From NCBI RefSeq assembly GCF_056712565.1, contig NZ_CM160072.1: a stretch of DNA of 64,000 nucleotides; one strand, 5' to 3'. The translations under genes and the position numbers were made by a program. The stretch's first letter is position 1. The number at the start of each line of letters is the position of its first letter. Shown here in pieces: positions 28,857 through 34,179 of this stretch. The notes below the pieces were generated by a model. That model was not told where the DNA came from, did not search any database, and worked only from the letters and a program-made list of their open reading frames with translations.

Positions 28857-29711
28857 TTACGCTTCAATAGCAGCGCGAAGTTTTTTCATCGCGTTCTTTT
28901 CCAGCTGGCGCACACGCTCAGCGGAAACACCGTAACGGTCAGCCAGTTCCTGCAACGTGGACTTATTGTCTTCGTCCAGCCAGCGCGCGCGGATGATATC
29001 CTGGCTACGCTCGTCCAGACCTTGCATCGCGTCGGTCAGACGGTTTGCTGCCTGCTCTTCCCAGTTATCATCTTCAATGCCGTCGGCAAAGTTAGATGAT
29101 TTATCCTGCAGATAGAGCACCGGAGCCATCGGCTGGCTGTCGGAATCGTCGTCGGAAGACAGGTCAAAGGTCATGTCCTGTGCTGCCATACGTGATTCCA
29201 TCTCACGTACGTCTTTACTGGTTACGCCCAGTTCACGGGCCACCATTTCGACTTCATCCTGGTTAAACCAGCCCAGACGCTGCTTGGTTTTACGCAGGTT
29301 AAAGAACAGTTTGCGCTGCGCTTTGGTGGTCGCAACTTTGACGATACGCCAGTTACGCAGAACGTATTCGTGGATCTCTGCTTTGATCCAGTGGACGGCG
29401 AAGGAGACCAGGCGCACACCCACTTCCGGGTTAAAACGGCGCACTGCTTTCATCAGGCCGATGTTACCTTCCTGAATCAAATCCGCCTGTGGCAGGCCAT
29501 AGCCCGCATAATTACGAGCAATATGAACAACAAACCGCAGGTGAGACAGGATCAGCGTTTTAGCTGCTTCCAGATCGCCATGGTAATGCAGCTTTTCAGC
29601 CAGCGCCCGCTCCTCGTCAGCCGACAACATCGGCCACGCGTTAGCTGCCCGGATGTAGGAATCCAGGTTGCCAACTGGGGCTAAAGCTAAACTTTGCATT
29701 TTGTCAGTCAT
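28857..29711 (-). CDS. rpoH: RNA polymerase sigma-32 (heat-shock sigma factor)
   Basis: 284 aa; translation matches RpoH, including the RpoH box region. Confidence 0.95.
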
Positions 29712-29799
29712 TCAAATCCTCTCAATCGATATCTTCTGGCGCTTTAGTGGTAGCAACAACTGTGCCAGAGCTTAAGAGCAACGAGGTTATCATTCACTG

Positions 29800-29831
29800 T
29801 TTTATCAGACCGTGATTTTATCCACAAGTTC
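29800..29831 (-). promoter_or_regulatory. rpoH P3 sigma-E-dependent promoter (-35 GAACTT, -10 TCTGA)
   Basis: Minus strand reads gaacttgtggataaaatcacggtctgataaaacag, matching the rpoH P3 sigma-E promoter as I recall it. Confidence 0.5.
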
Positions 29832-29955
29832 AATGCAAGCTTGTGAATAAATTACGCACAAAATGTGACATAGAGATGAAATACCGGGAAGAGACAACGG
29901 GGTCTCTTTCCCTGCTACGGAACCCATTGCAGGGAAAGAGTATAACACGCTTTTA

Positions 29956-31014
29956 TTATTCCGGCGTAAAGTGGCGTAAATGTTGTACCGTGGCAAGCCA
30001 CGCTGCCACCCAACCAATCATCGAGCATACCAGCAGCAATAGCAGGCATTCATCGAACGATAAGCCATTGATATCAAACTTCGTTCCGAAAACCTGTGCC
30101 ACTTCTGCAACCGCCGATGACAAACGCAGTACCAGAATTTCTGACAAAATTAGTGACAACAATGCGCCAGAAAATCCCAGCAATGCGCCACCGTACAGGA
30201 ACGGACGCAGGATGAAACCATCCGTCGCACCAATCAGTTTCTGCACGTTAATGGAGTCACGGCGAGCAAAGATACTCAGGCGCACACTGTTACCGATGAC
30301 GAGGAACACTGCCGCCACCATCAACACGCCGATCATCGCGGAAACGCGCCCGACCAGCCCGGTTAACGCCGCCAGACGGGCAAACCAGCTGTCATCCATC
30401 CGCACTTCGTCAATGCCGTTGATCTGGGTGATACGATCACGCAGCGTATTCAGTGATTCCGTCCCCTGAAAATCGAGTTTCGGGATCACCACCGCCACTG
30501 CCGGAAGCGGGTTTTCTTCCAGCATATCCAGCGCACCACCAAAACCAGACCAGTTACGGAACTCGCCCAGTGCGTCTTCACGAGAAAGATAATTCACTTT
30601 CTCTACGCCTTGCTCGGCCTGTAACTGTGCCACCACACCCGCAGCGGCGTCATCATCCAGCGTTTTTTGCAGATAAACAGTGATTTGCGGTGACGGATAA
30701 TACTGCGTCGCCGCCTGGTTAACGTTTTTGTACACCATATAACAGACGCTGGGCAGCGTCAGGGAGATGGCGATAACCATCACCGTTAAAAACGTGGCGA
30801 ACGGTTTGCTTTTCAGATCCTGCAATGCGCCGTGGAAGGCATAGCGCACCTGTTCGTTGAAAACGTTGGTTTTGCGATTTACCGGTTTTGGCGAGGATTT
30901 CGCCCGTTTTGGCGCGTTACGACCGCCGTCGCCAGAGCCGCCGACCGATTTACGGAAGCGATCCAGACGCCCGCCAAACTGCCGAATATGATTGATTGCA
31001 TCGCGCTTATTCAT
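29956..31014 (-). CDS. ftsX: Cell-division ABC-transporter-like permease
   Basis: Native start [15 protein letters not shown] gives 352 aa. The ORF track start at 31041 is an extension. Confidence 0.9.
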
Positions 31015-31675
31015 GGCCCACGCCTCCATGCAAGTGACCATCGCTCAGGGTGAGCATGCGATAGGAACGCCGCGAGATCAGGTTGATGTCGTGCGTTGCC
31101 ATCAATACGGTTACCCCAACGCGGTTAAACTCTTCAAACAGACGTAAAATGCCTTCCGACAACGCGTCGTCCAGGTTACCGGTCGGTTCATCCGCCAGCA
31201 GTACCGCGGGCTTGTTCACCACCGCGCGGGCAATGCCAACACGCTGTTGTTCACCGCCGGAAAGCTGAATAGGGAAGTTCTTCGCTTTGTCCAGTAGCCC
31301 GACTTTATCCAGCGCCGCCGACACCCGGCGACGAATGTCATCACCGCTGGCACCGGCGATAATCAGCGGGATCGCCACGTTATCATAGACAGTACGGTCC
31401 ATCAGTAGATGGTGATCCTGGAAAATCATGCCAATCTGGCGGCGCAGAAACGGAACTTCACGGTTTTTCAGACGCGTGATGTCATGGCCGCTAAACCAGA
31501 TTTTCCCGGCGCTGGGCCGCTCAATCCCACAGATCAGCTTCAGGAGGGTACTTTTCCCTGCGCCGGAATGACCGGTCAGAAACGCCATCTCACCCGGCTG
31601 CATATGGAACGTAACGCCCTGCAGCGCCTGTCTCCCACCGAGATAAGCCTTGCTGACATGTTCAAAGCGAATCAT
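31007..31675 (-). CDS. ftsE: Cell-division ATP-binding protein
   Basis: 222 aa; Walker [10 protein letters not shown] and signature LSGGEQQR; matches FtsE. Confidence 0.95.
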
Positions 31676-33920: not shown

Positions 33921-34179
33921 TATTGGTCGTTTGTTAATGCTCTGTGTTTGGGGATTTTTAATCCTCAACCTGGTGCATCCCTTCCCACGCCCGCTGAATA
34001 TTTTCGTTAACGTGGCGCTGATTTTTACCGTGCTGATGCATGGTATGCAGCTGGCGCTATTGAAATCCACTTTACCGAAAGATGGCCCGCAGATGACCAC
34101 CGCCGAAAAGGTGCGGATTTTCCTTTTCGGCGTGTTTGAACTGCTGGTCTGGCAGAAGAAATTTAAAGTTAAAAAATAA
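33910..34179 (+). CDS. yhhL: Small inner membrane protein (DUF1145)
   Basis: Internal ATG gives 89 aa beginning MLINIGRLLML, overlapping the rsmD stop by 11 nt. The ORF track start at 33787 lies inside rsmD. Confidence 0.75.
   Translation: MLINIGRLLMLCVWGFLILNLVHPFPRPLNIFVNVALIFTVLMHGMQLALLKSTLPKDGPQMTTAEKVRIFLFGVFELLVWQKKFKVKK

Follow-up and report, generated by a model that had tools for sequence, protein, structure and literature searches.

The ftsYEX operon and rpoH are read from the same strand in Escherichia coli and only 244 bp separate them, which raises the question of how the upstream mRNA comes to an end in so short a spacer, in which rpoH promoters also lie. The 3′ end of ftsYEX has hitherto had the status of an unannotated 'novel TTS' in one dataset. 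We examined the spacer in a 64-kb stretch of DNA (64,000 nucleotides, hereafter the window, to which positions refer unless given for MG1655), starting from an original prediction, made from the sequence, that pointed to a pair of hairpins behind ftsX. The first of these, hairpin 1, is a real RNA hairpin; it is strongly conserved, marks where the ftsYEX mRNA ends and can form only in RNA derived from ftsYEX. We assign a probability of about 0.7 to a fuller reading, in which hairpin 1 is the 3′-terminal stem-loop of ftsYEX and defines or protects the end, Rho terminates transcription shortly beyond it and the rpoH promoter P1 overlaps it; Rho dependence, exonuclease trimming and any role for the fold of P1 RNA are the parts of this reading that we infer.

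The ftsX–rpoH spacer

The region corresponds to the ftsX–rpoH spacer of E. coli and is identical across the hairpins to that of K-12 MG1655 (MG1655 coordinate = window position + 3571072); the two positions at which the aligned spacers differ both lie outside the hairpins, so that K-12 data can be transferred directly to the window. A 501-nt query around the repeat returned one match each in 5425 of 5426 complete E. coli genomes, annotated with ftsX and rpoH. The hairpin element itself carries no RefSeq annotation. The flanking genes are as follows, with ftsX ending at 29956 as originally stated.

28857–29711, minus strand: rpoH open reading frame (ORF list)
29956–31041, minus strand: ftsX open reading frame (ORF list; annotated as ftsX by RefSeq)
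29956–29958, minus strand: ftsX stop codon TAA, followed by a second in-frame TAA

Two overlapping hairpins

Hairpin 1 is formed by two arms, A and B, and a short distal part.

29929–29940, minus strand: arm A (CUCUUUCCCUGC), the 5′ arm of hairpin 1
29916–29928, minus strand: distal part of hairpin 1 (AAUGGGUUCCGUA), with an inner 4-bp stem AUGG/CCGU and a GUU loop (from the fold)
29904–29915, minus strand: arm B (GCAGGGAAAGAG), which serves hairpin 1 as its 3′ arm and the alternative hairpin 2 as its 5′ arm

On the plus strand the arms read CTCTTTCCCTGC (29904–29915) and GCAGGGAAAGAG (29929–29940) and are perfectly complementary. The inverted repeat had been described as an 11-bp perfect repeat around a 15-nt loop; the repeat is real but its arms are 12 bp long, and the supposed loop is a 13-nt segment with a 4-bp stem of its own (one G.U pair) and a loop of 3 nt. 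The 64-kb window contains three perfect inverted repeats with arms of 11 bp or more and a loop of 3–20 nt, compared with 0.25 ± 0.62 in 100 dinucleotide shuffles of it. Folding of the minus-strand RNA, a check proposed at the outset, gave a stable hairpin 1 (37 nt, −24.5 kcal/mol, z = −6.96) that none of 200 shuffles equalled. When the RNA was cut at the mapped 3′ end (see below) hairpin 1 folded at −25.6 kcal/mol and accounted for 91% of the ensemble (z = −6.55), leaving a tail of 6 nt. The plus strand of E. coli also folds (−21.5 and −15.0 kcal/mol), and folding alone leaves the strand unsettled, but the G.U pairs found across species in both helices fit the strand that is sense for ftsX and rpoH. 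Rfam 15 covariance models run over 29400–30200 on both strands gave no match at E ≤ 1. A repeated extragenic palindrome (REP) was considered and rejected, the 63-nt element being single copy, with a median of one place per genome (5425 of 5426 E. coli genomes).

The second hairpin uses arm B together with a downstream segment, A′ (29895–29886, minus strand), which is by eye a degenerate direct repeat of arm A (CUCUU-CCC versus CUCUUUCCC).

29886–29912, minus strand: hairpin 2 in its extended form, GGGAA.GAGAC – CCCGUU – GUCUCUUCCC (from the inverted repeat and the fold)

Its core is AGAGAC/GUCUCU (29907–29902 paired with 29895–29890, minus strand), and the extended form folds at −12.7 kcal/mol (z = −2.9). 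This small hairpin had been thought to lie within the first one. The AGAGAC/GUCUCU pairing does exist, but it is not nested: it shares the last four nucleotides of arm B and reaches downstream to 29886–29890, past the 29896 at which the element had been taken to begin. A:B and B:A′ are mutually exclusive, with 29912–29904 as their common strand.

Conservation across enterobacteria

A genome scan with RpoH found two named relatives with the same type of spacer, Enterobacter sp. Bisph1 and Citrobacter werkmanii, and no E. coli-type spacer in the more distant genera of that scan. A metagenome scan using the conserved sigma-E promoter core yielded 120 stretches. Pooled with the window and the named genomes and reduced to distinct sequences, these comprised 94 upstream regions and 58 hairpin segments. 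The order of elements is common to 57 of the segments: the ftsX stop codon, an A-rich stretch, TGnTATA(A/C)T, arm A, a variable distal part and arm B, followed by the second hairpin, a (T)nTCAT motif and a conserved TGTCACA...TTATTCACA box. Across the 57 sequences, identity to the E. coli base was 93% for arm A, 95% for arm B and 81% for A′, compared with 57% at third codon positions of ftsX and 50% in the distal part or loop. The repeat is thus strongly conserved among enterobacteria, and poor conservation, which together with a lack of nearby transcript ends was to have counted against the element, was not what we found.

The pattern of substitutions also speaks for a helix. RNAalifold independently predicted a 10-bp A:B stem from 54 distinct enterobacterial sequences, with 91% of cells paired compared with 41–60% when the partner was slid. 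Four pairs show compensatory changes, the recorded ones being T-A to C-G, T-A to A-T and C-G to U-A in three lineages (L002, L112 and L179), and 0 of 500 shuffles reached the observed values; this covariation comes from a few divergent lineages, six of the 12 arm pairs never vary and are hence uninformative, and the aligned sequences are related, so that the shuffle controls overstate significance. The arm core CCCTGC/GCAGGG is present in 54 of 54 sequences. The distal part ranges from 12 to 19 nt among lineages and retains an inner stem in most of them, for which comparison with shuffled loops gave modest support (mean z −0.9, range +0.85 to −3.8, 15 of 32 below −1). Arms whose spacing varies and whose changes are compensated are better explained by an RNA helix than by a protein operator. 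Within E. coli, three variant genomes carry, respectively, a C-G to U.G change, one loop change and a 1-nt deletion in the T-run of arm A.

Pairing of B with A′ was supported in the same alignment of 54 sequences by 80% of cells paired, compared with 50–62% with slid partners. Many of the B:A′ pairs are G.U, which would be A.C mismatches on the other strand, and covariation is weak, with 8 to 32 of 500 shuffles reaching the observed values.

Transcript ends and the rpoH P1 promoter

The sequence and published long-read data place three features on or beside hairpin 1.

29939–29947, minus strand: rpoH P1 extended −10, TGtTATACT (TG at 29947–29946, hexamer at 29944–29939; from the sequence)
29931 (MG1655 3601003), minus strand: rpoH P1 start site (SMRT-Cappable-seq; ±2 nt)
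29898 (MG1655 3600970), minus strand: 3′ end of the full-length primary ftsYEX transcript, 6 nt 3′ of the base of hairpin 1

The final two bases of the P1 extended −10 are the opening two bases of arm A. The element lies 8 nt upstream of the mapped P1 start and has the make-up of a sigma-70 extended −10, a TGn plus a −10 hexamer 6–8 nt upstream of a capped 5′ end; inspection for a −35 at 17-bp spacing found no good one. TGnTATA(A/C)T is kept at the P1 position in the related sequences aligned. The mapped start is the tenth base of arm A, a U, and agrees with a P1 start about 220 nt before the rpoH ATG. The hairpins had been placed upstream of the rpoH promoter cluster, which does not hold, as the −10 of P1 overlaps arm A and its start lies inside the arm. 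RNAs initiated at P1 consequently lack arm A and cannot form hairpin 1. An overlap of an ftsYEX terminator with P1 was reportedly noted in rpoH promoter papers of the 1980s and 1990s. Open-access full texts dealing with rpoH and ftsX contained no description of the hairpin, and older rpoH papers may mention a terminator-like structure at P1.

In Acerihabitans arboris, outside the Enterobacteriaceae-type spacers, an extended −10 (TGTTATAAT) likewise directly follows the ftsX stop codon (L004, 1296–1340) and the hairpin behind it is not significant (z = −0.17). Judged from sequence comparison, the position of the P1 promoter seems to be older than the strong hairpin.

The 3′ end was taken from the full-length primary transcripts determined by SMRT-Cappable-seq in rich medium (Yan et al., 2018, Supplementary Data 1), which include an ftsY-ftsE-ftsX transcript running from a TSS at 3604315 to a TTS at 3600970, labelled 'novelTTS' (PMC6131387). 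Of 633 reads from this TSS, 146 end at 3600970, 43 stop no more than 50 nt beyond it and 69 continue past that point, their median read-through being 70 nt (PMC6131387). The rpoH terminator lies about 1.1 kb beyond the ftsYEX end, and an ftsE-ftsX-rpoH operon variant is also listed, indicating some read-through (PMC6131387). The suspected relation of the element to the ends of ftsYEX transcripts is therefore borne out by an end 6 nt past the hairpin. In the curated Term-seq lists of Adams (2021; PMC7815308), which cover three conditions, no 3′ end falls at 36009xx or 36010xx, and the M9 data of Yan et al. (2018) contain no ftsYEX 3′ end at the hairpin, so that the ftsYEX end comes from one long-read dataset and one growth condition. 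In M9 medium the P1 transcript of rpoH (b3461) runs on the reverse strand from 3601003 to 3599880 (Yan et al., 2018; PMC6131387), and in rich medium the dominant primary 5′ end of rpoH is not P1 but 3600847 (window 29775; PMC6131387). Similar fractions of rpoH reads reach the rpoH terminator from P1 (18/55) and from the downstream promoter (31/75; PMC6131387).

Formation of the ftsYEX 3′ end

The element had been held not to be a classical intrinsic terminator for want of a U-tract, and we agree: the 9 nt after hairpin 1 are ACCCCGUUG, with only two U residues, and a consensus terminator scan of 29600–30100 on both strands found no terminator-like site (one promoter-like hit was unrelated). 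The RNA that follows the hairpin is of another kind.

29864–29903, minus strand: C-rich, G-poor tract, a candidate rut-like sequence that contains A′ (from composition; putative function)

The 40 nt 3′ of hairpin 1 contain 35% C and 12% G, and an excess of C over G is seen in 58 of 58 lineages; as a candidate rut-like tract it is short, at about 40 nt. A bicyclomycin-sensitive 'Rho termination region' has been called at 3600870 (window 29798) with a score of 1.92 (p = 1e-11) (Adams 2021, PMC7815308). This score is computed over 800-nt windows, is of low resolution and shows a rise in the rpoH:ftsX signal ratio when Rho is blocked (PMC7815308). The score could just as well arise from rpoH promoters being induced by bicyclomycin. 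The call sits within the rpoH promoter cluster.

Dar and Sorek (2018) described a class of Rho-dependent transcripts whose steady-state ends lie just after stable stem-loops that have no U-tract, with rut-like C-rich sequence downstream, and in which PNPase and RNase II trim the RNA back to the stem. The C-rich tract, the Rho call and the diffuse ends 1–120 nt past the hairpin together match ftsYEX to this class. Like its members, ftsYEX has a stable stem-loop and no U-tract, a 3′ end a few nucleotides after it, an excess of C over G downstream, a nearby region that is called bicyclomycin-sensitive and more diffuse ends further on; unlike them, its hairpin is unusually well conserved and is overlapped by the core promoter of the next gene, and Rho dependence and trimming by PNPase and RNase II, described for the class, are putative here. 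Hairpin 1 is best filed as a well-conserved 3′ stem-loop, lacking a U-tract, that ends a probably Rho-terminated operon, with the added twist that the core promoter of the next gene overlaps it.

On this basis we propose that RNA polymerase arriving from ftsX transcribes arms A and B, upon which hairpin 1 folds. Having met no U-tract, transcription most likely runs on for some tens of nucleotides and would end diffusely downstream, probably through Rho loading on the C-rich, G-poor RNA. Exonucleases acting 3′ to 5′ would then trim the transcript to hairpin 1, giving the end 6 nt after its base. The ftsYEX mRNA would in this way gain a defined and protected 3′ end, and most ftsYEX transcription would be kept out of rpoH. 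In transcripts from P1, which lack arm A, arm B would pair with A′ as hairpin 2, beside a small 5′ hairpin. A review in which ftsYEX and rpoH do not seem to be transcriptionally coupled (PMC8082313) fits this proposal, which would explain both how the essential ftsYEX operon obtains a defined mRNA end in the absence of a classical terminator and how two units so close together act as separate transcription units. It also corrects the local map for engineering, as the main constitutive rpoH promoter is embedded in the terminal hairpin of the upstream operon; P1 and the hairpin share DNA, so that mutating one changes the other.

RNA initiated at P1

When the RNA is started at P1 and arm A is thereby removed, the predicted E. 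coli fold is a small 5′-terminal hairpin, UGC.AUGG...CCGU.GCA, followed directly by B:A′ (−19.4 kcal/mol, z = −2.3). The predicted 5′ hairpin leaves no unpaired 5′ nucleotides; the 5′ 17-nt segment alone, taken without the closing GCA, is weak (−1.2 kcal/mol, z about 0). In nearly all lineages the fold predicted for RNA that lacks arm A likewise joins arm B to a downstream A′, even where A′ differs in sequence or position, as with CUUUUCCUGC in the L082 group, and in the L082 lineage the A:B and B:A′ folds are close in energy. From these models, B:A′ in the P1 mRNA might shield the 5′ end, keep Rho from the C-rich tract, or work as a pause site or terminator.

The conserved (T)nTCAT(C) motif lies at 29875–29883 on the minus strand, some 15 nt before the TGTCACA box. 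Several lineages (L121, L099 and L112) have it as TTTTTCAT directly after B:A′, a combination that on its sequence looks like an intrinsic terminator specific to P1-initiated RNA. In these three lineages B:A′ abuts the U5 run only when arm A is absent, and the predicted P1 RNA of L121 and L099 has 0–1 nt of unpaired tail between B:A′ and UUUUU. A U5 run adjoining B:A′ is found in a minority of lineages only, and the E. coli tail after B:A′ is weak (GGUAUUUCAU).

A more tentative proposal, which we consider rather improbable as it stands, is that A, B and A′ constitute a start-site-dependent switch, that is, a conserved, ligand-free insulator-plus-promoter module that treats two classes of RNA polymerase differently. 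RNA derived from ftsX would fold A:B and leave the C-rich A′ single-stranded, so that Rho would load and transcription would end before rpoH; RNA from P1 would fold B:A′, the tract would be hidden and the 5′ end capped by structure, and transcription would run into rpoH to give a perhaps stabler mRNA. One hint is that ftsYEX read-through has a median of 70 nt compared with 18 of 55 P1 reads continuing to the rpoH terminator, figures that come from different growth media. A second is that, in 57 of 57 lineages, predicted pairing over the 30 nt that follow arm B is lower for read-through RNA than for P1 RNA (unpaired fraction 0.63 versus 0.47), a difference that is partly true by construction. 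If the refolding were functional, the locus would be a compact example of transcript fate that depends on origin.

Alternative explanations

The sharpness of the ftsYEX end (146 reads share one site 6 nt past the stem) and the strength of the hairpin (−24.5 kcal/mol) right after the stop codon would also be expected if hairpin 1 were a non-canonical intrinsic terminator and true termination occurred at 29898 with no part for Rho. Hairpin 1 does resemble an intrinsic terminator, as it is a strong stem-loop that comes straight after the final gene of an operon and has a transcript 3′ end close behind it, but it differs in having no U-tract (ACCCCGUUG, two U only), no upstream A-tract for such a tail to pair with and no hit in the consensus scan. 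Many reads moreover end 1–120 nt further downstream (median +70 nt), and sharp ends after stem-loops without a U-tract typify trimmed Rho-dependent transcripts (Dar and Sorek, 2018), so that we regard termination at 29898 itself as unlikely. The end could instead be made by endonucleolytic processing of longer ftsYEX-rpoH transcripts by RNase E or RNase III. Such read-through transcripts exist (ftsE-ftsX-rpoH), RNase III and PNPase influence the level of rpoH mRNA (PMC9032294), and the end falls in single-stranded CG|UU just past the helix. RNase III substrates are, however, typically longer than a stem of 12 + 4 bp, and the end falls outside the helix; only seven of the termination sites of Yan et al. 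are at RNase III sites (PMC6131387), the RNase III paper on rpoH (PMC9032294) shows no cleavage in this region, and the local match to an RNase E motif is only partial by eye. We therefore hold processing to be very unlikely as the source of the end.

Two further explanations place the function of the repeat at P1. One takes the element as an attenuator in the P1 leader of rpoH, with A:B as the anti-terminator and B:A′ plus a U-rich tail as terminator or pause, the ftsYEX end being a by-product. The conserved three-segment arrangement, the U5 run that B:A′ abuts in L121 and L099 only when arm A is missing, and the near-equal energies of the two folds in the L082 lineage all suit it, and a middle segment that pairs with either neighbour recalls attenuators such as the trp leader and the expression platforms of riboswitches. 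The choice between folds would here depend on the start site, not on a ligand, ribosome or protein, no attenuated product is documented, and the E. coli tail is weak (GGUAUUUCAU) and is not called as a terminator by the scan. Reads from P1 and from the downstream promoter extend to the rpoH terminator at similar rates (18/55 and 31/75), no Term-seq 3′ end lies near 29880 (Adams 2021, PMC7815308), the adjacent U5 is confined to a minority of lineages and the covariation of B:A′ is weak (8 to 32 of 500 shuffles), which makes attenuation in our estimation quite unlikely. The other takes the repeat as a DNA operator for a dimeric regulator of P1, with the RNA fold incidental, in line with the earlier suggestion of a protein-binding element. 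The repeat covers about −9 to +28 of P1 and its arms are near-invariant (CCCTGC/GCAGGG in 54 of 54), beyond what pairing alone requires. An inter-arm distance of 12–19 nt among lineages is nevertheless unlike the fixed geometry of a dimer site, which makes the suggestion improbable; compensatory arm changes occur in L112, L179 and L002, a transcript 3′ end maps right after the stem, and overlap with the P1 discriminator and start, together with the two partners of arm B, accounts for the extra constraint. We consider an operator to be highly improbable.

Comparison with other 5′ structures

The stem-loop in the 5′ UTR of ompA is an example of a 5′-terminal structure that stabilises an mRNA. 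The predicted P1 RNA similarly starts with a hairpin and has no unpaired 5′ nucleotides; it differs in that this hairpin is weak on its own (−1.2 kcal/mol), its start is known to ±2 nt and a stabilising effect is putative. In rpoH itself, as later papers report it, a thermosensor around and downstream of the start codon controls translation (Morita et al., 1999, via PMC7815308, PMC9032294). The hairpins described here share with it the gene and the use of RNA structure, but the element is positioned about 190–230 nt before that codon, and P1 mRNA does not contain hairpin 1.

Neighbouring features

Only two other perfect inverted repeats with arms of 11 bp or more and short loops occur in the window, at 34101–34132 (CGCCGAAAAGG...CCTTTTCGGCG, loop of 10 nt) and 60718–60744 (CAGATAAGGCG...CGCCTTATCTG, loop of 5 nt); these may be terminators or REP-like elements. 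Nearer to rpoH, a very strong Term-seq 3′ end lies on the minus strand at 29730–29732 (MG1655 3600802/3600804), 21 nt upstream of the start codon; it was found in at least two conditions, classed as 'orphan' and annotated as 'RNA thermometer' (Adams 2021, PMC7815308).

At the 3′ end of ftsX the plus strand carries a tandem direct repeat, GGCGTAAA/GGCGTAAA, with 10-bp spacing (29963–29980). Its GTAAA-N5-GTAAA pattern matches the CpxR box consensus and is positioned at about −35 to −49 of rpoH P1; conservation of the repeat is uninformative because it is also coding sequence.

Further into the spacer, an inverted repeat TTTATCCACAAG/CTTGTGAATAAA at 29817–29851 (92% complementary) consists of opposed DnaA-box-like 9-mers, TTATCCACA and TTATTCACA, that flank a sigma-E-type core GAACTT...TCTGA; this block is 96% conserved across the enterobacterial sequences. 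Finally, a match to the sigma-54 promoter consensus, TGGCAC-N5-TTGCT, lies on the minus strand at 29752–29767, between the P3/P4 region and the start codon of rpoH, and a reported RpoN binding peak at the rpoH/ftsX spacer (PMC8743547) is consistent with this site.
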